Below, one piece after another: positions 23 through 8,923 of a stretch of DNA of 8,923 bases. The DNA comes from Candidatus Iainarchaeum sp. (GTDB lineage: Archaea > Iainarchaeota > Iainarchaeia > Iainarchaeales > CSSED10-239), in NCBI GenBank assembly GCA_937968065.1, contig CALBUD010000085.1, positions 1 through 8,923 of the forward strand, written 5' to 3'. A program made the translations under genes and the position numbers. The first letter of the stretch is position 1. Every line of letters starts with the position of its first letter. The notes below the pieces were generated by a model, which saw nothing but the letters and a program-made list of their open reading frames with translations, had not been told where the DNA came from and did not search any database.

Positions 23-2953
23 ATGTCTGTTGAAAAATATAAAGCAACTGAAAAAAAAGATTTCTTTGAAGATATGGATAAATATAGAAGAACAGTTGTA
101 AATGAAGATACTATTAAAGATATTGAAGAAAAGATAAAAAAATCTAAAAAAAACCATCTTTTAGAAGATGTTGAAGAAGAAAAAGAAGAAGATTTAGAAA
201 AAGAACAAGAAGAATCTTATGAAAATACAAAAAACTATGATTTAGAAGATGAAGAAAAAGAAGAAGAAAAAGAAGAACAAGAAAAAGATTTAGAAGAAGA
301 AAAAGAAGAAGATCTAGAAAAAGCTTATGAAGATGCAGAAAACTATGATTTAGAAGATGAAGAAAAAGAAGAAGATATTGAAGAAGTTGATAAAATAGAT
401 TTTACTTCAAAAAAAAACAAAGAAGAAATTATAAAAGAAAAACAAGATGTTGATAAAGACATAGAAGAAACTATTGAAAAACATAAAAAAGAAGATTTAG
501 AAAAAACATTAAAAGATGAACATATAAAACCACAACTTAAATTTTTAAAAGATTTAGAAGACCCTAATGTTGTTTATTTAGGAAGGAAAAAATCAGTTTT
601 AAAACAATATGGTAAAACAGCATCAGCATACATAGGAAAAGTTGCAGAAAACCAACAGAAAGGAAAACAAGTACACATAGATGGCCTTAATCCGCATGTT
701 ATCTTCTTAGATGGTGCTAGAGGAACAGGAAAGAGTTATCTTTTAGGAGTAATTGCAGAAGAACTTGCAAGAACAAACCAATATATAGGACAAATAGTGA
801 TTGATCCTGTTGGTGTCTTTTGGTCAATGAAATTTCCAAACAAAGATTCAAAAGAATTAAAATTATTAGAAGAATGGGGTCTTAAAGCAGAAGGTCTTAA
901 AAACTTAAAAGTTTTTGTTCCTGAAGGTATAAAATCTCAAGTTTCAAAAGATACTTATGATGATACTTTTTCAATGTATCCTTCTCTTTTAACAACAGAA
1001 GATTGGTGTTTAACTTTCGGTATTGAAAGATTTTCTCCATCAGGTCTTCTTTTAGAAAAAACATTAGAATCTGTTAAAAAAGGATATATGACTGGTGGAA
1101 CAAAAGAAGTTCCTGATATTAAAAAAATACATGGAAAAGGAAATCAATATACTTTAGAAGATATTATTAATTCTCTTCAAAATAATTCAGAATTTCAATC
1201 TTCTCAAAAAGGATATAAACCAGATTCAATAAGAGCTTTAGTTTCAAGATTTGAAGCTGCAAGATCTTGGGGTATTTTTTCAGATTCTGGAACTCCTTTA
1301 TCTAAACTTTCAAGAGAAAATCAATTAACTGTTTTAGATACTTCTTTTTTAGATGAAAACATAACTGCTCTTGTTATTGGTATTTTAGCAAGAAGAATAC
1401 TTTCTGCAAGAAAACTTCTTGCAAGACAAGAAGCTGCTTCAAAATTTAAAGAAAATGATCAAAAAGCAGAAGAACTTTTAGAAATTGAAATTCCACCAAC
1501 CTGGATGTATATAGATGAAGCGCATACTTTAATTCCTTCTGGAAATTCACAAACACCAGCAACAGCAGGAATAATTGAATATGTAAAACAAGGAAGAAGA
1601 CCAGGTTGTTCTTTAGTTTTTGCAACTCAACAACCTTCTGCAATAAATACAAAAGTTTTATCTCAAGTAGATATATTAATCTCAAATAAATTAGTGTTTA
1701 ATGATGATATTTCTGCAATACAAAAAAGAATGCCTGCAATTATTCCAAAACAATATAAAGAACCTAATTTTATTAAAACTTTACCATTTGCAACTGCTCT
1801 TGTAGGAGATAGATCTGAAGAAACATCCAGAGCATTTATTTTAAAAGCTGCTCCAAGAAGATCTCAACATGAAGGACGTGATGCTGAAACTATAAGAGAA
1901 GTTCCAAAGAAAAATAAATCTGAAGTTTTACAAATAGCATTTAACTTAATTTATCCAAAATTAGAAAAATCTAAACAAATTAAAACAAATTTTGCAAAAG
2001 ATATTTTAGATGTTATAAATATAAAGTATAGAGCTGATGTTTATTGGGATGAGATTTTAGAAAAATTATTTGAAAAACAAGTTATCTTAGAAGAAAATAT
2101 TTTATATTTAAATAAAAGTTATTTAGATAAAAAAGAAGAATTAATTAAATCTGAAGTTATTGAAGAAGAAGAGAGTTTTGATGAAATAAAAGAAGAAGTT
2201 GAAAGCATATCTTCTCCAATTACAAAAATAAAAACAAGAACAGTACTCTCTGAAAGAATAAATCGTTTAAATATTGAAGAAATTGCAAAGTCAAATATTA
2301 AAAAACAATTTATTATATTTAAACCAAAAGAAGAAATACAAACTATTGTTTTAAAGTATCGTGCAATTTACAAGATGTCTTATAATTTTTTTGAAAATGA
2401 AAATGATTTTAAGAAATGCACTTGTTTTATAGATTCTTATACTGGAGAGTTTATACATTTCATTAATTCTGAATTTAAGATATCAAAAGGTCTTAAAAAT
2501 ATAAGTGACTTAGACGATATTGATTTAGATTTATTATATCTTTTATCAAAACAACAAACTATTTTTTCTTTAAATCAAGAAACAGATCTTGATGAAAAAG
2601 AAATTTTAAAAAGAATTAATAATTTTAAAGAACTTAAACTAATAACTAACAAAGAAAGTAATAATAGAGAAATCTATAAACTTTCTGAAAATTTCGATAT
2701 TCCATTTAACCCAAATCATAGATTATTATCCTCTATTGATATTTTGCCTTTAAAGAAAAAAGATGTAGAGTTTTATGAAGATCATAATTATTCTATTTTA
2801 GATATTCAAGAAAAATTAAAAAAATTATGGAAAGCAATAGAATTTTTATCAACTGAAGAGATTTATTGGCCAATTTGGAATGTCACTTATATAGATAATA
2901 AAAATAATTTAAGAATATTAAAAATTGATGCAATAACAGGAAAAGAGATGTAG
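23..2953 (+). CDS. HerA/FtsK-superfamily (DUF87-like) P-loop ATPase with hyper-acidic N-terminal tail and ~350-aa C-terminal extension of unknown function
   Basis: 976-aa ORF with ATG at 23 and an in-frame TAA at 17-19 just upstream. Walker A GARGTGKS (nt 713-736, aa 231-238) follows a DUF87-type lead-in (VHIDGLNPHVIFLDG). Walker B WMYIDEAH is at nt 1502-1525. The HerA-like post-Walker-B block GRRPGCSLVFATQQPSAINTKVLSQVDILISNKL starts at nt 1592. An Arg-rich segment RRSQHEGRD lies at nt 1856-1882. No transmembrane segment and no room for a HAS-barrel. The family call comes from motif recognition, not a search. Confidence 0.8.
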   Translation: MSVEKYKATEKKDFFEDMDKYRRTVVNEDTIKDIEEKIKKSKKNHLLEDVEEEKEEDLEKEQEESYENTKNYDLEDEEKEEEKEEQEKDLEEEKEEDLEKAYEDAENYDLEDEEKEEDIEEVDKIDFTSKKNKEEIIKEKQDVDKDIEETIEKHKKEDLEKTLKDEHIKPQLKFLKDLEDPNVVYLGRKKSVLKQYGKTASAYIGKVAENQQKGKQVHIDGLNPHVIFLDGARGTGKSYLLGVIAEELARTNQYIGQIVIDPVGVFWSMKFPNKDSKELKLLEEWGLKAEGLKNLKVFVPEGIKSQVSKDTYDDTFSMYPSLLTTEDWCLTFGIERFSPSGLLLEKTLESVKKGYMTGGTKEVPDIKKIHGKGNQYTLEDIINSLQNNSEFQSSQKGYKPDSIRALVSRFEAARSWGIFSDSGTPLSKLSRENQLTVLDTSFLDENITALVIGILARRILSARKLLARQEAASKFKENDQKAEELLEIEIPPTWMYIDEAHTLIPSGNSQTPATAGIIEYVKQGRRPGCSLVFATQQPSAINTKVLSQVDILISNKLVFNDDISAIQKRMPAIIPKQYKEPNFIKTLPFATALVGDRSEETSRAFILKAAPRRSQHEGRDAETIREVPKKNKSEVLQIAFNLIYPKLEKSKQIKTNFAKDILDVINIKYRADVYWDEILEKLFEKQVILEENILYLNKSYLDKKEELIKSEVIEEEESFDEIKEEVESISSPITKIKTRTVLSERINRLNIEEIAKSNIKKQFIIFKPKEEIQTIVLKYRAIYKMSYNFFENENDFKKCTCFIDSYTGEFIHFINSEFKISKGLKNISDLDDIDLDLLYLLSKQQTIFSLNQETDLDEKEILKRINNFKELKLITNKESNNREIYKLSENFDIPFNPNHRLLSSIDILPLKKKDVEFYEDHNYSILDIQEKLKKLWKAIEFLSTEEIYWPIWNVTYIDNKNNLRILKIDAITGKEM
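173..374 (+). repeat. In-frame imperfect tandem duplication (~120-nt period) inside the acidic tail of the ATPase gene
   Basis: Unit A is 173-266 and unit B is 293-374. The first 31 nt (173-203 vs 293-323) differ at one base. The last 34 nt (233-266 vs 341-374) are identical. The middle differs by a 12-nt (4-codon) indel. Protein units: EEEKEEDLEKEQEESYENTKNYDLEDEEKEE vs EEEKEEDLEKAYEDAENYDLEDEEKEE. Confidence 0.85.
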
Positions 2954-2958
2954 TTATT

Positions 2959-3600
2959 ATGCCTTCTAAAAAACCAACTTTAAAAAAACCAATTTCTAAA
3001 AAATCATCCTCAAAATTAGATGCTATAGATAAAACACATAATATTTTAAAAACTCTTGAAAAAAAATACCCTAAACAACTATTTTCAAATGATTTAACTA
3101 TAGGTAATATTAATCTTCTTACATTAAAGTTTAGAAAAGAACCTGAATTTTTTAATAAAGTTAAATCTTCTATTAAAGATAAAAAATTTAATTTTAAAAA
3201 ATTAATTGAATCTTTAAAAAGAGAACAAGAGCATACTAATAAATTAAATATAGAGCAAAGAATTAAGCAATCAATGTTATTAACAGATGTTGAAAAAAAA
3301 TCATTTTCAAATTATTTAATTAAAAATAAAATTAAACCAGAATTTGCAGAAAAGACAGTAGATTTACTATCTAATAATTATACCAAAAAAGAAATTAGAG
3401 AAATTGTGGTGTCTTTTTCAAAAGTTTTTAATTTTTTACATCCTTCACAAAGAGATAGATTTTATAGAAAAACTTTTTATGAACTTAAGAAAACAAATAA
3501 TAATTATATTCAAATAATTACAAGACTTGCAAGTAATAAAATTAGTGAAAAACAAAGAAATTATTTCTTTAAAACTCTTTTTCCAAATTATAAAAAATAA
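2959..3600 (+). CDS. Hypothetical strongly basic Lys-rich protein (213 aa), probable operon partner of the upstream ATPase
   Basis: ATG lies 5 nt after the ATPase TAG stop, on the same strand. By hand count it has about 50 K+R vs about 21 D+E. The N-terminus is PSKKPTLKKPISKKSSSK. No TM segment, no signal peptide and no motif I recognise. The coding call rests on ORF length, tight coupling and codon usage consistent with the neighbours. Confidence 0.7.
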   Translation: MPSKKPTLKKPISKKSSSKLDAIDKTHNILKTLEKKYPKQLFSNDLTIGNINLLTLKFRKEPEFFNKVKSSIKDKKFNFKKLIESLKREQEHTNKLNIEQRIKQSMLLTDVEKKSFSNYLIKNKIKPEFAEKTVDLLSNNYTKKEIREIVVSFSKVFNFLHPSQRDRFYRKTFYELKKTNNNYIQIITRLASNKISEKQRNYFFKTLFPNYKK

Positions 3601-4418
3601 GTAAGGATATAAATAATTCCTAATATAAAACAAAAATAGGAAAAATTTATATTTTTTGCAAATTTAATTAAAAGATCTATAGTTATATACCCTACAAAGA
3701 AAGAAACAATTATAGATATTAATATTAAGGGAGAGAAGAAAAAACCATTAAATATTAAAAGAGCAATTTCTCCAATTAAAATAGTTGGTATTGAAAGTAG
3801 AAAACTTATTCTAAAAGCATTTTCTGGATTAAAACCTCTGAAGAGTAAAAGTGAAGTTGTAAGTCCACTTCTACTAAGCCCAGGAATTATTGAAAAACCT
3901 TGAAAAACACCTAAAAGAAAAGAATTTTTAATTGAAAAGTTTGGTTTTTTAGAAATTATATTTCTTGAAAAGAATATTAAAAGACCAGTTATTATAAGTA
4001 ATAAACCAATTATAAAATTAACAATCAATATATTTTTAATATTTTGAATATAATTATTTATTAAAAAATATAAAGGAGCAGATATTATTAATGTAACAAT
4101 TACTGCAATTAATAAAAATCTAAATAAATTAAATTTTTTTTCTTTTAAATCATTTTTAGTAAATATTTTAAAATTATATTTTTTTAATAATAAAAAATTA
4201 TTTAAAGATAATAAAGACGCTAATTTTTTTCTAAAATAAACTATTGCTGCAAGTAATGTTCCTATATGCAAAAAAATAGAATAATTTAAACTTAACAGAG
4301 GTGTTATATTTAAAACATTTGATAAATAAATAACAAGTCCTCCTTGAGAACTTATTGGAAGCCATTCTATAACACCTTGTATAACACCTAAAAGAATATA
4401 ATTAATAATTTCATTCAT
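3588..4418 (-). CDS. uppP: Undecaprenyl-diphosphate phosphatase (UppP/BacA family)
   Basis: 276-aa polytopic membrane protein. Both family signature blocks are present: GVIQGVIEWLPISSQGG (aa 11-27, cf. E. coli BacA VEGLTEFLPVSSTGH) and FQGFSIIPGLSRSGLTTS (aa 172-189; PGLSRSG at nt 3864-3884, cf. PGFSRSGATIS). Length is typical for the family. Confidence 0.9.
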   Translation of the reverse strand: MNEIINYILLGVIQGVIEWLPISSQGGLVIYLSNVLNITPLLSLNYSIFLHIGTLLAAIVYFRKKLASLLSLNNFLLLKKYNFKIFTKNDLKEKKFNLFRFLLIAVIVTLIISAPLYFLINNYIQNIKNILIVNFIIGLLLIITGLLIFFSRNIISKKPNFSIKNSFLLGVFQGFSIIPGLSRSGLTTSLLLFRGFNPENAFRISFLLSIPTILIGEIALLIFNGFFFSPLILISIIVSFFVGYITIDLLIKFAKNINFSYFCFILGIIYILTYFL

Positions 4419-4539
4419 CTTAAATAATAATATAACCAGTTTATTTTTAAAAAGATAAGTATTTGTAAAAAAAGTTATAAAATGAAAGAATTTTTAAATA
4501 TTCACAGTTAAGTATATTTATAATTAGATAGGTTTTAAG
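4419..4539. promoter_or_regulatory. Divergent promoter region between uppP (-) and the DUF457 gene (+)
   Basis: This 121-nt intergenic spacer is the only non-coding DNA between two divergently oriented genes. TATA-like runs occur at about 4441-4454 (minus-strand reading ctttttaaaaataa, about 30 nt upstream of the uppP ATG) and at 4491-4500 and 4513-4523 upstream of the 4540 ATG. No clear Shine-Dalgarno. TATA-like strings are frequent by chance in DNA this AT-rich. Confidence 0.35.
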
Positions 4540-4968
4540 ATGAATAAATTAGGACATGTATTATTTTCAACATTAATTTTTATTTTTATATATGTAGTTA
4601 TATCTAATAATTTAGAAATTGATATTTCAAAAGTATTAATTGCTTATTTTATATTTATAATTTATTCTTTAATTCCAGATTTAGATAAAAACAATTCTTG
4701 GATAAGAAAACAGTTCAATACAATTGTAATATTGTTAATCCTTTTCTTTACTGTTTTAAGTATTGTAAATAATGATAAAACAGCAATGTTAATTGCAGGA
4801 ATATTAATCTCTGTTATTATGTTTTTAACAGTTGTAAAACATAGAGGTCCAGTGCACTCTTTATCTTTTGGAATTATAGCATCTGCACCTTTGTTATTTA
4901 TAGATCCTTTTTTCTTTTTTGTAGGCGTTATAGGTGTTTTAACACATCTTCTTGCAGATATGATTTAA
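4540..4968 (+). CDS. DUF457 / YdjM-like membrane-bound putative metal-dependent hydrolase (short form)
   Basis: 142-aa hydrophobic protein. It carries the ordered DUF457 motifs seen in E. coli YdjM: N-terminal GHVLFS (GHLLFS), LIPDLDKNNS (LLPDIDHPKS), KHRGPVHSLSFG (GHRGFTHSL) and LTHLLADMI (LSHILADML). The protein ends directly after the last motif. Confidence 0.75.
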   Translation: MNKLGHVLFSTLIFIFIYVVISNNLEIDISKVLIAYFIFIIYSLIPDLDKNNSWIRKQFNTIVILLILFFTVLSIVNNDKTAMLIAGILISVIMFLTVVKHRGPVHSLSFGIIASAPLLFIDPFFFFVGVIGVLTHLLADMI

Positions 4969-5834
4969 TTTTTAATAAGATTTAGTTTAATTAAAAGAAT
5001 TTTTAAAAAATTTTCTTTTTCAATAATTTCTTCTTCTTCAATAATTTCGGGTTCTAGTTTTTCTTCAGGTTCCATATAATTAACTGTTATTGTTCTTATC
5101 TTATGAACATCATCTTTATTAAATGCATAACAATTAATATAATATTTACTTAAAAAATTATTAATATCAGAATCAGGAAAAACCTCTAAAGAAAATTCGT
5201 TATTATTTATATATCTTAAATCTAAAATTAAATCTTCTTTATCAATAAAGCATTTAATATCATATAAAAGATTATAATCAACATGATTTTTTATAGTTAT
5301 TAAATCTTTGTCAAATTTATTTAAAAGAATCATCTTATCTCTTGAAAGAGAATATCCTTTATAATCTGGAACTTTATTTATAGGACTATCTATAAAATCA
5401 TATTCTGAATTATTTGAAACTAAATCTAAATAAATATGTTGTGAATCTATAAGGTTATTAAAAACATCATAAATATTTACTTTTATTTTTAACTTTATCT
5501 TTTGATCTATAAAATTTAAACCTCTAATATTTAAAAAAAAATTAGAATTTACTTTAGATATAAAATATTCTTCTTTTTTTGAAAGACTTAAATCTATTTG
5601 ATTAAGATTATTTGAATAAACTGTTAAATCATACTCAGCTCTCATAAAATTTTGATAAGTTGCAAAATAATCTGTATCTAATCTAAAGTTTATTGTTTTA
5701 TTTATATTTTTTGAAATATAAAATTTGTTTTCTTTAACATCACTTGCAGTTTCTAAAAATATATTTGCTTGTGAAAATATATTTGGAATTATCAATATTA
5801 TTGCTAAAATCAAAAGTATTTTTTTATAATTCAT
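4965..5834 (-). CDS. Secreted or surface hypothetical protein with N-terminal signal peptide or anchor
   Basis: 289-aa ORF. The N-terminus MNYKKILLILAIILIIPNIFSQA has the n-region, h-region and small-residue pattern of a signal peptide. The body is Asn/Tyr/Ile-rich with alternating beta-like patterns. The C-terminus has an acidic stretch PEEKLEPEIIEEEEIIEKE followed by an amphipathic tail. No family recognised. Confidence 0.7.
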   Translation of the reverse strand: MNYKKILLILAIILIIPNIFSQANIFLETASDVKENKFYISKNINKTINFRLDTDYFATYQNFMRAEYDLTVYSNNLNQIDLSLSKKEEYFISKVNSNFFLNIRGLNFIDQKIKLKIKVNIYDVFNNLIDSQHIYLDLVSNNSEYDFIDSPINKVPDYKGYSLSRDKMILLNKFDKDLITIKNHVDYNLLYDIKCFIDKEDLILDLRYINNNEFSLEVFPDSDINNFLSKYYINCYAFNKDDVHKIRTITVNYMEPEEKLEPEIIEEEEIIEKENFLKILLIKLNLIKN

Positions 5835-5914
5835 AACTGTTCACTATATAATTATAGTCAATTAACCTTTATAAATATATTGATTTTATAAACTTAAGCA
5901 TACATATATAAATT
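5835..5914. promoter_or_regulatory. Divergent promoter region between the secreted-protein gene (-) and the DUF1846 gene (+)
   Basis: 80-nt spacer between divergent genes. The string ttttataaa at 5884-5892 is centred about 27 nt upstream of the 5915 ATG, the spacing expected for an archaeal TATA box on a leaderless mRNA. The near-palindromic tttataaa at 5868-5875 could serve the minus-strand gene. No Shine-Dalgarno precedes 5915. The high-AT background makes this weak evidence. Confidence 0.35.
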
Positions 5915-6922
5915 ATGAAAAAAACAATTGCTTTTGATGAAAATAAATATATTTCTCTACAAACACAAGAAATCAAAAAAAGATTAAAAAACTTTGATAA
6001 AGTCTATATAGAGTTTGGAGGGCATCTTCTAAGAGATTATCATGCAAATAGAGTTTTAATAGATTATAAGAAAGATACAAAGGTAAAAATTTTAGAAAAA
6101 TTAAAAAAAGATGTTGGTATCATTTATTGTATTTATTCAAAACATTTAGAGAATGGAAGAGATTATAATAGTAATTTAGAATTTAGAAAACTAGTTTTAA
6201 ATGAAATAGATGTTTTAAGAAAAAAATTTAAAAAAATAGATGTTGTTATAACTAGATATAAAAATGAAAAGTCAGGAAAAGTTTTTGAAAAAGAAATGTT
6301 AAATAAAAATATAAAAGTTTATTTTTCAAAACCAATAAAAGATTATCCAAAAGATGTTAAAGAGATTCTTGGAAGAAACGGTTTTATTAAACAACCCTAT
6401 ATAAAAACTAATCAAAAAATAAATATTGTTATTGGTCCTGTTGCAAATTCTGGAAAGATGGGGGTTTGTCTTTTACAAATGTTTCTTGATTCTAAACAAA
6501 ATATTAATCCAGGATATTTTAAATCAGAAACTTTTCCAATATACAACCTTCCTTTAAATCATCCTATTAACCTTGCATATGAAGCAGCAACAGCAGATAT
6601 TGGTGATAAAAACTTAATTGATCCTTTTCATAAAAAAGAATATGGAAAAGTTGCTATAAATTATAATAGAGATATTGAAAATTTCAAAATACTTAAAAAA
6701 ATAATAATTCATATAGTTTCTAAAAAAAATAAAATGAATGAATATAAATCTCCAACAGATATGGGTATTAATTTAATTAAAAAAGCAATTGTTGATGAAA
6801 AAAGAATAATTAAAGCTTGCAAAAAAGAAATTATTTTAAGACATAAAACATATATTAAAAGAAAAGAAAAAAAAGAAGTTATTGAAAAAATGAAACTTCT
6901 TTTAAAAGAAATTAAGGAATAA
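5915..6922 (+). CDS. DUF1846 / UPF0371 family protein, short form lacking the usual C-terminal third
   Basis: The N-terminus [44 protein letters not shown] matches the UPF0371 hallmark (GFDxEKYLxLQxxxIxERIxxFxxKLYLEFGGKLxxDxHAxRVLPG). The central block [51 protein letters not shown] closely matches the family core ([35 protein letters not shown]...NYNRDIE). It is 335 aa, whereas I recall typical members as about 490-500 aa. Confidence 0.85.
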   Translation: [335 protein letters not shown]

Positions 6923-8923
6923 ATGGTTCTATAACTTCAAGTTCTGGAAATGGAGTTTTAAATAAAGGATAAGTTACATTTTCAGTTATTTGCCATATAT
7001 TTGTAAAATCCCACCCAATAAATGTTGCTTCTTGTTTCATTTCACTTGTTGTTTTTGGAATTCCTTTATCTTCATCTGATTGTCCTGATGTTTGAGAATC
7101 ATAATAACAATCAATAATCTCTACATATATTTCTTCAGGATTACCACCTAAAAGACCACCAACATTTAAATCTCCAGTAACACTTCCTACAGAATAAGAA
7201 TGAAGAACAAAATTTTGGCTTTCTTCATAATATCCTAAAAATCCAATTAAACCACCAACATAATCATCTCCTTCAACATTTGCTGTTGAATAAGTCTGAA
7301 CAATGTTAACACCATCTTCAGTATATCCAATAAGTCCACCTACATAACTATAATCACTATATATTTCACCAGTTGAATAACTATTGTATACAGAAGCTCC
7401 ATCAACTAATGCACTAACTAACCCTCCAGTCATGCTAAATGGAGATGTTACATTTACAGAAGAATAAGAATTATATAAATAGGTATTATTTCCCATAAAT
7501 ACTGTTACCAATCCTCCTAAAATATTATAACCTGCAGTTCCATAATATCTTAAAGAAAATTCTAAAACTTCATTTATTTCTATTTCTGATTTTGGAATTT
7601 TAATTTCACAAGTTTGGTGTTTATAATCTGCTTTATCTGTCATTCCAAAACCACAAACACCATAAGTGTTATCAAAATCATTTACTAAAAATTTATTTTC
7701 ATTAATAGTAATTTCAATCCAATCTTCTCCAAAATCATTTGTGTTATCTGAAGGTATATCAACAGAAAAATAAATAAACTCAAGATCATCTCTTACATAA
7801 ATATAATTTTCTGTAATTGGATGTCCTGTTGATGGACTCCATTTAAATGAATATAAAGGTTCTTCATTTATTACTTCTTCTAAAATTCCATCAACTTCTA
7901 AAGAACTAAAATTAGATCTAAGTGTATATTCTACAGAACCTTTAAATAAAGGAAATCTTAAAGGAAAAGAATTTCCATATTCATTTGCAGTTAGAAATAA
8001 AGTAGCAGTAGAGCATTCTTCTGGTATGTTCCAAGAAACTTCAATAGTTTTATTATTTACAACAGCAATATTTTTATCTATTTTTAAAACATCTTCTAAA
8101 ACATTTTCAAAAGTATCTGTATAATGAGCGTAAGTTGGAGTTAATTTTTCTTCGCAAGCATTTAAAATAATTGCATCCACACCTGAGAAGGGAAGATTTT
8201 TTTGATTAATTCTTAAAGTTAAAATTTCTTCTAAATCTTCAAATAAAAATTCTTGAGTTTCATAATTAATAGAAAAACTTTTAGAATAAACTTCTTTAAA
8301 AGAATTTTCTGAATTTAATTTACTTATATATATAGTAGAACCTGTATCTCTATAAATTTCTCCTGTTGCAAAAGAATAACTTATGTTTGAATCTTGAGCA
8401 ACTCCAACTAATGCAGCACCCCCTACAAGATTAAGATTTACATCTACAAGTCCTATGTTTGATAAGTTAGCTCCTGCAATTCCAGAAAATAATCCATAAA
8501 AATCATTTCCACTTGGTTTATTAATATAAAGATTTGTTAAAGTATATCCTCTTCCATCAAAAGTTCCTGTAAAAAAGTTTTCAGATTGAGCACTCCCGAT
8601 TGATTCAAAACCTTCTCCTGAATTCCAGTTATCAGTTGTGGTTGAAATATTTAAAGGAGGGTCTTGCCAATGATTTGGATTAAAAAAATCAATATTTCTT
8701 CCTAAAGCATAATCACCATCTAAATTATCTCTAACATAATCAAAATCATCTGCATAACATAAAATATATATACCATTATTAAGACCAGTTGAACATGGAT
8801 TGATTCTATAAATAATATTAGTTAAATTTATTATTTCATTATTTGTTGTATAAAGCACAATTGTTATATTTCTTTCTTGTATTTCTAAAGAAGATAAATC
8901 AAAATCTTTAATAGCAGTAATTC
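6912..8923 (-). CDS. GLUG-motif beta-helix surface protein (adhesin or IgA-protease-like repeat domain), 5' partial because the N-terminus lies beyond the window
   Basis: The supplied ORF starts at a GTG (8856-8858). I translated the same frame upstream (8859-8921: ITAIKDFDLSSLEIQERNITI) and found no stop before the window edge, so the true start is probably outside. Family evidence is fourfold. First, the entry motif FTGTFDGRGYTLTNLYINKP..FYGLFSGI. Second, repeated GGL(V/I/L)G units (aa 146-152, 448-451, 478-481, 507-511, 535-539, 567-571 of the listed ORF). Third, the closing module CYYDSQTSGQS...TTSEMKQEATFIGWDFTNIWQI..YPLF. Fourth, no signal peptide in the listed ORF, consistent with a missing N-terminus. 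Confidence 0.85.
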   Translation of the reverse strand, partial: ITAIKDFDLSSLEIQERNITIVLYTTNNEIINLTNIIYRINPCSTGLNNGIYILCYADDFDYVRDNLDGDYALGRNIDFFNPNHWQDPPLNISTTTDNWNSGEGFESIGSAQSENFFTGTFDGRGYTLTNLYINKPSGNDFYGLFSGIAGANLSNIGLVDVNLNLVGGAALVGVAQDSNISYSFATGEIYRDTGSTIYISKLNSENSFKEVYSKSFSINYETQEFLFEDLEEILTLRINQKNLPFSGVDAIILNACEEKLTPTYAHYTDTFENVLEDVLKIDKNIAVVNNKTIEVSWNIPEECSTATLFLTANEYGNSFPLRFPLFKGSVEYTLRSNFSSLEVDGILEEVINEEPLYSFKWSPSTGHPITENYIYVRDDLEFIYFSVDIPSDNTNDFGEDWIEITINENKFLVNDFDNTYGVCGFGMTDKADYKHQTCEIKIPKSEIEINEVLEFSLRYYGTAGYNILGGLVTVFMGNNTYLYNSYSSVNVTSPFSMTGGLVSALVDGASVYNSYSTGEIYSDYSYVGGLIGYTEDGVNIVQTYSTANVEGDDYVGGLIGFLGYYEESQNFVLHSYSVGSVTGDLNVGGLLGGNPEEIYVEIIDCYYDSQTSGQSDEDKGIPKTTSEMKQEATFIGWDFTNIWQITENVTYPLFKTPFPELEVIEPFIP

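Follow-up and report, generated by a model that had tools for sequence, protein, structure and literature searches.

The 8,923-bp stretch of Candidatus Iainarchaeum sp. DNA considered here (the window: the whole of a single metagenome contig, GC about 16-31%) opens with two closely spaced genes on one strand, open reading frame 1 (ORF1), encoding a 976-residue P-loop ATPase, and ORF2, encoding a 213-residue Lys-rich protein, which an earlier note made from the sequence alone had proposed as a module of a motor and its basic partner. We find that ORF1 is an atypical HerA-clade P-loop ATPase, and that the reading best suited to the evidence, to which we give a probability of roughly 0.6, is that ORF1 is a stand-alone conserved HerA-variant motor and ORF2 an accidental neighbour. 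The motor-partner system as proposed does not exist as a conserved unit, and it is not a candidate defence or translocase module.

ORF1 as a HerA-clade ATPase

ORF1 matches the Pfam profile DUF87 (PF01935, the HerA central domain; E = 7e-13, 49.6 bits against a gathering cut-off of 23.2 bits), and the AlphaFold model of its residues 168-976 (a monomer model with 71 sequences as input; predicted local distance difference test score, pLDDT, 86.9) has as its core a RecA-like domain with a helical insertion, which is the HerA fold. In a Foldseek comparison this model aligns with 447 of 458 residues of Sulfolobus HerA (4d2i; E = 4e-17, TM(target) 0.61), at an identity of only ~16% and a root-mean-square deviation of 6.7 Å. 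All of the top 50 PDB matches (E <= 2e-13) are HerA-type ATPase chains, HerA proper and TdpA, among them the Thermococcus HerA-NurA complex, Deinococcus HerA, and the Sir2-HerA and DUF4297-HerA defence complexes. Pfam DUF87 and the match to 4d2i thus place within the HerA clade what the earlier note had called, more broadly, an atypical HerA/FtsK-type motor.

Upstream of the P-loop strand only ~55 residues, modelled as three short strands and one helix, appear to stand in the place of the HAS barrel. The two HerA_antiphage equivalogs of NCBIfam, with cut-offs of 850 and 800 bits, give ORF1 32.1 and 29.4 bits respectively, and the HerA equivalogs NF040819 and NF040937 do not match ORF1 at E <= 0.1. 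A distant homologue (locus L080) matches HerA_Thermprot (E = 6e-15) and helicase_HerA (E = 1e-13), with scores of 55 and 50 bits against cut-offs of 800 and 970. Among the PADLOC profiles, which carry no curated cut-off, mad8 matches ORF1 over positions 5-311 of 314 (E = 6.4e-15) and several HerA models match as well; PHROGs gave generic P-loop matches only. The features located within ORF1 are as follows (strand in brackets).

23-2953 (+), ORF1, 976-aa HerA-clade P-loop ATPase (Pfam, alignment, Foldseek of the model)
23-547 (+), N-terminal tip motif and hyper-acidic low-complexity tail, residues 1-175
548-1897 (+), HerA-fold core, residues 176-625 (Foldseek 4d2i, Pfam DUF87, PADLOC mad8, Haloplanus ATPase)
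713-736 (+), Walker A loop GARGTGKS, residues 231-238
1502-1525 (+), Walker B block WMYIDEAH, residues 494-501, with D498 and E499 invariant
1592-1639 (+), GRRPGCSLVFATQQPS block (GRRPG...ATQQPS), residues 524-539
1853-1891 (+), core-closing PRxSQHEGRxxET peptide, residues 611-623, nearly invariant
1916-2110 (+), winged-helix domain 1 (wH1), residues 632-696 (model m4a4fb3e66d4c, pLDDT about 95)
2111-2230 (+), acidic disordered linker, residues 697-736, family median net charge -7
2231-2485 (+), alpha/beta domain 1, residues 737-821, a single helix lying against long antiparallel strands
2492-2683 (+), winged-helix domain 2 (wH2), residues 824-887, TrmB/MarR/ArsR-like
2720-2950 (+), alpha/beta domain 2, residues 900-976, a homologous repeat of alpha/beta domain 1

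Residue conservation, scored in alignments of 22 and 71 sequences, is concentrated in the core, where column identity averages 0.78; it is moderate in the C-terminus (0.40-0.51), and the N-terminus is highly variable. Invariant or nearly invariant positions include G231, R233, G234, G236, K237 and S238 of Walker A, I497-H501 of the Walker B region, and G524, R525, P527, G528 and Q536-S539 of the Arg/Gln sensor block; in alignment the GRRPGCSLVFATQQPS block pairs with EGRKYG...SQRPS in the anti-phage HerA chains of solved structure. The catalytic motifs of the motor are under strong purifying selection, and the complete Walker A, Walker B and Arg-rich blocks reported in the earlier note can all be located at the sequence level. 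The hyper-acidic N-terminal tail of ~175 residues and the C-terminal extension of ~350 residues that it described are likewise both present.

The tail (residues 1-175) has a net charge of -36 and is 41% Asp plus Glu, most of it encoded by GAA-rich tandem repeats at 163-375. Across homologues the acidic stretch ranges from absent to >200 residues; the tail is a lineage-variable low-complexity expansion, absent or short in many members. At its tip M1, D13 and F15 are each at least 90% conserved, giving a short acidic-hydrophobic motif, D-[FL]-F-[DE], on an acidic linker of variable length.

The C-terminal extension, by contrast, is a conserved folded module and not low-complexity padding: the AlphaFold model of residues 606-976 (71 sequences) reaches a pLDDT of 88.4. 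Winged helices, which the earlier note had suspected here, are present in the model, two in number; wH2 matches SmtB/CzrA in Foldseek with probability 1.0 across about 65 residues (E about 1e-2), the family profile matches MarR-type ZitR/AdcR (E = 3e-3), and Pfam TrmB matches are found in ORF1 homologues. The two alpha/beta domains are related to each other (hhalign probability 94.8%, E = 4.8e-8); the label 'PepSY-like' that might be attached to them is based on weak sequence matches only, and Foldseek searches of PDB and BFVD returned no structural counterpart for these domains or for the C-terminal module as a whole. Conserved basic columns are almost lacking in the winged helices (K668 in wH1, none in wH2), the family median net charges are 0 for wH1 and +1 for wH2, and wH2 of the window protein is visibly acidic-rich. 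On these grounds the analogy with the FtsK gamma domain is architectural only, and sequence reading of DNA in the manner of FtsK gamma, once considered for these segments, has been down-weighted.

Relatives of ORF1 are numerous. A protein search returned >442, the best 120 all at E <= 1e-222 with query coverage of 53-100%, and most of these 120 span the core and the C-terminal extension together (81-100% coverage). Scanning GTDB, with each species represented by a single genome, confirmed 375 genome loci, and the best 80 of them, almost all from Iainarchaeota (Diapherotrites) or Micrarchaeota, form the locus set used below (loci are numbered with the prefix L). Included are the complete genomes of Ca. 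Forterrea multitransposorum (CP045477.1, 73% identity; hereafter Forterrea) and archaeon AR10 (CP010424.1). Identity over the core and C-terminus is 70-73% in Forterrea-like genomes, 41-59% among the remaining Iainarchaeota and 37-54% once Micrarchaeota are reached, a drop with taxonomic distance that is the pattern predicted by vertical inheritance; ORF1 would accordingly have descended vertically across these two phyla. The gene is kept in genomes of 0.67-0.84 Mb. A Walker A intein (~435 aa; GARGSGK/C...VHN/SY, the slashes marking its ends) interrupts 10 of the 80 genome homologues (L054, L055, L056, L060, L062, L063, L070, L072, L076 and L083), and the window copy is intein-free. L076, from an uncultured archaeon, holds two paralogues less than ~6 kb apart, one of them with an intein; one lies at L076:5596-9576 and the second close to the 3' end of that locus. 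Typical family members also occur on contigs labelled Falkowbacteria and Chloroflexi (L025, L030); these are probably contaminating DPANN contigs introduced at the binning stage, and their genes no true bacterial homologues. Public annotation calls these proteins only 'DUF87 domain-containing' or 'ATP-binding', and in the titles and abstracts of the literature found the predicted domain architecture is undescribed. The family represents a well-defined and strongly conserved HerA-clade architecture, found here only in genome-reduced DPANN lineages.

Outside DPANN the closest sequence relative of the core is a short core-only ATPase and not a canonical HerA. This protein, encoded on a plasmid of Haloplanus sp. 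HW8-1 (WP_251331428.1, 389 aa), aligns end to end with ORF1 residues 207-621 (29% identity, E = 4e-53), has the motifs DPxGxxW, WGIFSD and a terminal PRxSQHxG in common with the ORF1 family, and also matches the mad8 profile. It was the single informative match among plasmid records searched with tblastn, and phage records gave no ORF1 match. Its gene (within L092:4844-7152, NZ_CP098519.1) follows a 'BREX system ATP-binding' gene and a 380-aa PglZ-like gene, overlapping the end of the latter by 4 nt. A PD-(D/E)XK nuclease and a helicase are encoded alongside, and this haloarchaeal locus may serve in defence of a MADS/BREX-like kind.

The junction with ORF2 and the surrounding genes

ORF2 begins 5 nt past the ORF1 stop codon, on the same strand. 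The features that bear on this junction are listed below.

2959-3600 (+), ORF2, 213-aa Lys-rich protein, net charge +29, of a small lineage-restricted family
2954-2961 (+), rearrangement junction (DNA alignments with relatives)
2959-6922 (no strand assigned), block of ORF2(+), bacA/uppP(-), ydjM(+), 289-aa gene(-) and DUF1846(+), inverted with respect to the ATPase when compared with relatives
3588-4418 (-), uppP/bacA (undecaprenyl-diphosphatase), convergent neighbour of ORF2-family genes

An ORF2-like gene adjoins an ORF1 homologue at none of the 80 genome loci and in none of the 72-73% identical relatives; among the collected loci the arrangement occurs in the window alone. When a hidden Markov model (HMM) of the ORF2 family was run against six-frame translations of all collected loci, it found matches 5.7 kb from the ATPase in Forterrea, 3.7 kb in L006 and 3.9 kb in L087, all on the strand opposite to the ATPase, and otherwise only on the short contigs L086 and L091. 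These genes are tied to other neighbours: the ORF2 homologue is convergent with uppP/bacA, their 3' ends overlapping, in Forterrea (L088-L090) and L087, and a partly sequenced convergent gene in L091 is consistent with the same layout. The overlap measures 13 nt in the window and 8-15 nt in L087, L088 and L091. A thioredoxin gene lies divergently upstream of the ORF2 homologue in Forterrea and L086.

The gene orders explain how the adjacency arose. The window reads ATPase(+) ORF2(+) bacA(-) ydjM(+) 289aa(-) DUF1846(+) 648aa(-), and Forterrea reads thioredoxin(-) ORF2 homologue(+) bacA(-) ydjM(+) 285aa(-) Kelch(-) DUF1846(+) 98aa(-) ATPase(-). Written as clusters (from ORFs of the 80 genome loci, L001-L005 and the window) and oriented with the ATPase, C0, these become C0+ ORF2+ C11- C13+ C12- C10+ in the window and C0+ C4+ C10- C21+ C12+ C13- C11+ ORF2h- in Forterrea, where ORF2h is the ORF2 homologue. 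Because order and strand relative to the ATPase are opposite to those of Forterrea, we take the block from ORF2 to DUF1846 to be inverted in the window. In DNA alignments homology of the ATPase 3' end with its relatives continues through the ORF1 stop codon, and homology to ORF2-family genes begins at the ORF2 ATG (ATGCCT...). A conserved AT-rich element, ATATATTATAGAATAGATTTAAAAGAATATA, precedes ORF2-family genes (L088:5900-6000, L086:1250-1353, L087:60-160); in Forterrea (L088) and L086 it falls within the intergenic region common with the divergent thioredoxin gene, and it is probably the promoter of these genes. The same alignments show it to be missing upstream of ORF2 in the window. Inverted repeats able to mediate an inversion, or a long common repeat at the junction, were not found; the only matches were AT-rich and of low complexity.

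The adjacency of ORF1 and ORF2 is accounted for by an inversion with its breakpoint at the ORF2 ATG. ORF2 is a fast-evolving Lys-rich protein whose gene would ancestrally have been flanked by the thioredoxin gene on one side and uppP/bacA on the other; in the lineage of the window an inversion of 4 kb would then have cut it off from its upstream region and set its start codon 5 nt past the end of ORF1. Transcription of ORF1 now probably extends into ORF2, through a capture that is probably recent, accidental and peculiar to this lineage. The two-gene module of the earlier note is in this way set aside, its members being separated by 3.7-5.7 kb and placed on opposite strands where both occur in relatives. 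The case also carries a caution for AT-rich genomes, in which close spacing together with complementary charge is weak evidence of functional coupling.

What had been said of ORF2 itself holds in part. Its position, length and net charge of +29 (41 Lys and 9 Arg against 7 Asp and 14 Glu; pI 10.1) agree with the earlier description. The charge is less unusual than it seemed, because the DUF1846 protein in the same AT-rich window (~22% GC) has a net charge of +33 (18.5% Lys). The label of orphan does not stand, at least in the strict sense: a word-indexed protein search found ORF2 itself only, and a full HMMER scan across 1.84 billion representatives recovered four near-full-length relatives (193-211 aa, E = 1e-15 to 1e-18) together with three others that are shorter or match less strongly. 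All five near-full-length members with a computed charge are basic (net +22 to +28). This small family is confined to the Forterrea-like clade, and that of ORF1 spans two phyla. Pfam, PADLOC, NCBIfam and PHROGs assign ORF2 to no nuclease, NADase or defence-effector family, in line with the earlier failure to recognise a nuclease or NADase, and the family profile found nothing meaningful in PDB or Pfam (best E = 0.045, to an integrase-like nuclear magnetic resonance structure, with scattered single-member Pfam matches). One ORF2-family gene, in an Iainarchaeum metagenome-assembled genome (L006:12550-13178, minus strand), is split into two overlapping frames and may represent a frameshift, a pseudogene or a sequencing error.

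The neighbours of the ATPase vary across genomes. In the Forterrea-like clade (L001, L003, L005-L012, L045) it is followed after 0-15 nt by a non-basic protein of ~98 aa, cluster C4 (for example L003:9019-9315, L001:8919-9230 and L005:5852-6145), which is a single domain of the TATA-binding protein (TBP), a 'half-TBP' (profile against archaeal TBP, E = 7.6e-9; Pfam TBP in 7 of 10 members). PHROGs gave no match for it. In other Iainarchaeota the half-TBP gene lies 4-6 genes from the ATPase, and the window lacks it. A TBP of the normal two-domain kind is also encoded nearby in Forterrea (L088:1185-1793). At other loci the gene that comes after the ATPase is mostly convergent, and it encodes a GlmU-like acetyltransferase (with GlmM and GlmS next in line), a HAD-CofD fusion, or a 270-aa protein (with ribosomal protein L44e and SMC next in line). 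Ten co-directional downstream genes, beside distant homologues, encode SAM synthetase (twice), an SDR, an M50 peptidase, a helix-turn-helix protein and five proteins without a family match. Another recurrent neighbour, cluster C7, is membrane-protein-like and has no Pfam match.

None of NurA, Mre11, Rad50, Sir2, DUF4297 and PglZ occurs among the recurrent neighbour clusters of the 80 loci or these ten genes, and neither PADLOC nor Pfam finds a Sir2 or DUF4297 effector in the window or among conserved neighbours, so the reported absence of known HerA partners from the window extends to the conserved neighbourhood. PADLOC, run on ORF1, ORF2, the DUF1846 protein and a 648-aa window protein, gave no match to the last three and no other mad genes. 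Lacking a conserved partner and standing among housekeeping genes, the ATPase behaves as a stand-alone gene. The 648-aa protein (6912-8858, minus strand; net charge -62, pI 4.1) contains repeated VGGL(I/L)G motifs, has no Pfam, NCBIfam or PADLOC match, and is encoded where relatives have the half-TBP gene or other genes.

Possible functions and rival readings

By analogy with its fold family, ORF1 may form a HerA-like ring that pulls a polymer, most likely double-stranded DNA, through its pore at the expense of ATP. The C-terminal module would then act as an adaptor or regulatory cap, recognising a substrate or partner or gating the ring; we propose this role and not that of a sequence reader because the winged helices have no conserved basic surface. 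HerA C-terminal elements contact the neighbouring subunit, and by analogy the PRxSQHEGR peptide that closes the core may reach over the interface between subunits. An intramolecular or partner-binding regulatory role could fall to the acidic tail and its conserved tip, which might, more speculatively, mirror in reverse the acidic tail and tip found in bacterial SSB.

A function as a DNA translocase in chromosome maintenance is our tentative choice, held at somewhat less than even odds. Core chromosome maintenance is preferred to defence because the gene is kept in genomes of 0.67-0.84 Mb, follows a vertical gradient of identity, has housekeeping neighbours and carries P-loop inteins. Genes at 40-70% identity in genomes of 0.7-0.8 Mb that carry P-loop inteins are usually central to cell function. 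It is possible, though doubtful, that the family is the principal and essential DNA pump of Iainarchaeota and Micrarchaeota, a translocase for chromosome segregation or repair analogous to FtsK, with the duplicated C-terminal cap and N-terminal tip serving in gating or docking and with the half-TBP cooperating in the Forterrea clade. Were that so, the cap and tethered tip would be a previously undescribed gating or partner-docking device on a HerA ring. Chromosome segregation and repair in these archaea are poorly understood, and the ORF1 family is a concrete, expressible candidate for either process in DPANN.

Several observations weigh against a stand-alone motor with an accidental neighbour. 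As the window is a single 8.9-kb metagenome contig, there is a small chance that the ORF1-ORF2 junction is a chimeric join, though no long repeat is shared there; if it is genuine, a spacer of 5 nt may create a real though young functional link. The substrate (DNA, RNA or protein) would be assigned from the fold family only. The nearest core relatives outside DPANN are mad8-like, one of them in a BREX/PglZ-like plasmid locus, so that a defence ancestry is possible. In the literature found on HerA, DPANN, Micrarchaeota, MADS and Forterrea no title or abstract concerns the ORF1 family, and a search combining DUF87, archaea and winged helix returned no matching paper.

That ORF1 and ORF2 form a dedicated pair, ORF2 being a DNA-binding or effector subunit or else a remodelled substrate, is highly improbable. 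The shared strand, the 5-nt spacer with likely co-transcription in this genome, the complementary charges of acidic tail and basic ORF2, and the presence in relatives of ORF2-family genes no more than about 6 kb away from the ATPase would all suit such a pair; they are outweighed by the absence of an adjacent ORF2-like gene at all 80 homologue loci, by the opposite strand, the 3.7-5.7 kb distance and the tie to uppP/bacA of the homologues in Forterrea, L006 and L087, and by the inversion that accounts for the adjacency. The restriction of the ORF2 family to the Forterrea-like clade, against two phyla for ORF1, points the same way, as do the lack of the acidic tail in many homologues and the commonness of high positive charge in an AT-rich proteome. 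ORF1 might instead be a divergent canonical HerA orthologue acting in the resection of double-strand-break ends, its partners NurA, Mre11 and Rad50 being encoded at other places in the genome. We judge this unlikely: its best structural matches are indeed Sulfolobus HerA and the Thermococcus HerA-NurA complex, the homologue in L080 matches HerA_Thermprot and helicase_HerA, and inteins, which favour DNA-metabolism ATPases, sit in the Walker A loop of family members, but the equivalog scores of L080 fall far below cut-off and the window protein has no match, none of the three partners is encoded beside any of the 80 loci, and an apparently much reduced HAS-barrel region is joined to a 350-aa C-terminal module without a HerA counterpart.

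A defence-type HerA or mad8-like ATPase, acting as a single gene or with an unrecognised effector, is quite unlikely for a gene that is conserved, syntenic and vertically patterned in two phyla, small genomes included, that has housekeeping neighbours and no adjacent effector, methylase or PglZ gene, and for which phage records gave no match and PADLOC found nothing in the other three window proteins; what speaks for it is the mad8 match over the whole profile, the matches to HerA defence models, and the 29% identity of the core to the Haloplanus ATPase in its PglZ-like/BREX/PD-(D/E)XK plasmid locus. DPANN archaea depend on hosts, and this dependence invites the proposal that ORF1 powers the transfer of DNA or protein between symbiont and host, by CedB/VirB4-like uptake or secretion. 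Weak NCBIfam matches of a family member to CedD, CedB, VirB4 and TraB (E = 1e-3 to 2e-8) could be cited in its favour; these reflect the common superfamily, the fold ranking puts HerA above VirB4 and FtsK, and no recognisable channel or pilus component (CedA, VirB6) stands among the annotated neighbours, so that we consider it very unlikely.

Comparison with known systems

FtsK and SpoIIIE belong to the same superfamily as ORF1 and have the same layout of a motor followed by a winged helix. No FtsK chain is found among the top 50 structural matches, however, and none appears among the top family matches; no membrane anchor was noted in ORF1, to which no dedicated transmembrane predictor was applied, and KOPS-like DNA reading is not indicated for winged helices with almost no conserved basic residues. 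The bacterial YjgR/DUF853 proteins (PF05872, HerA_C) resemble many ORF1-family members from Walker B to the sensor region. These matches are weak (E = 9e-6 and 25 bits for the AR10 homologue), the window ORF1 falls below PF05872, and the C-terminal module is unrelated.

The anti-phage HerA proteins (Sir2-HerA/Nezha and DUF4297-HerA; 8xau, 8wiv, 9c1m, 8ziq) match the ORF1 model in Foldseek at E = 1e-16 to 1e-13 and its sequence around Walker B and the sensor block at E = 7e-6 to 3.5e-7. ORF1 differs from them in having no nearby effector, in its conserved chromosomal position across phyla and in scoring below their equivalog cut-offs. The short mad8-like HerA ATPases (PADLOC mads_8; Haloplanus) resemble the ORF1 core end to end over residues 207-621. 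These proteins, some 310-390 aa long, consist of the core alone, and their genes share plasmid or defence-type loci with genes of PglZ-like and BREX type; ORF1 is greatly extended at both ends and lies among housekeeping genes.

Canonical archaeal HerA (4d2i; Thermococcus HerA-NurA, 9x1m) has the motor fold, Walker A and B and the GR..G/QxP block in common with ORF1. Compared with it, ORF1 has an apparently reduced N-terminal barrel region, scores below the equivalog cut-offs and lacks a NurA, Mre11 and Rad50 neighbourhood; it adds the acidic N-terminal tail and a 350-aa C-terminus of alternating winged-helix and alpha/beta domains (wH, alpha/beta, wH, alpha/beta). ORF1 is a new example of accessory domains grafted onto HerA rings, the mechanism itself being unsurprising.

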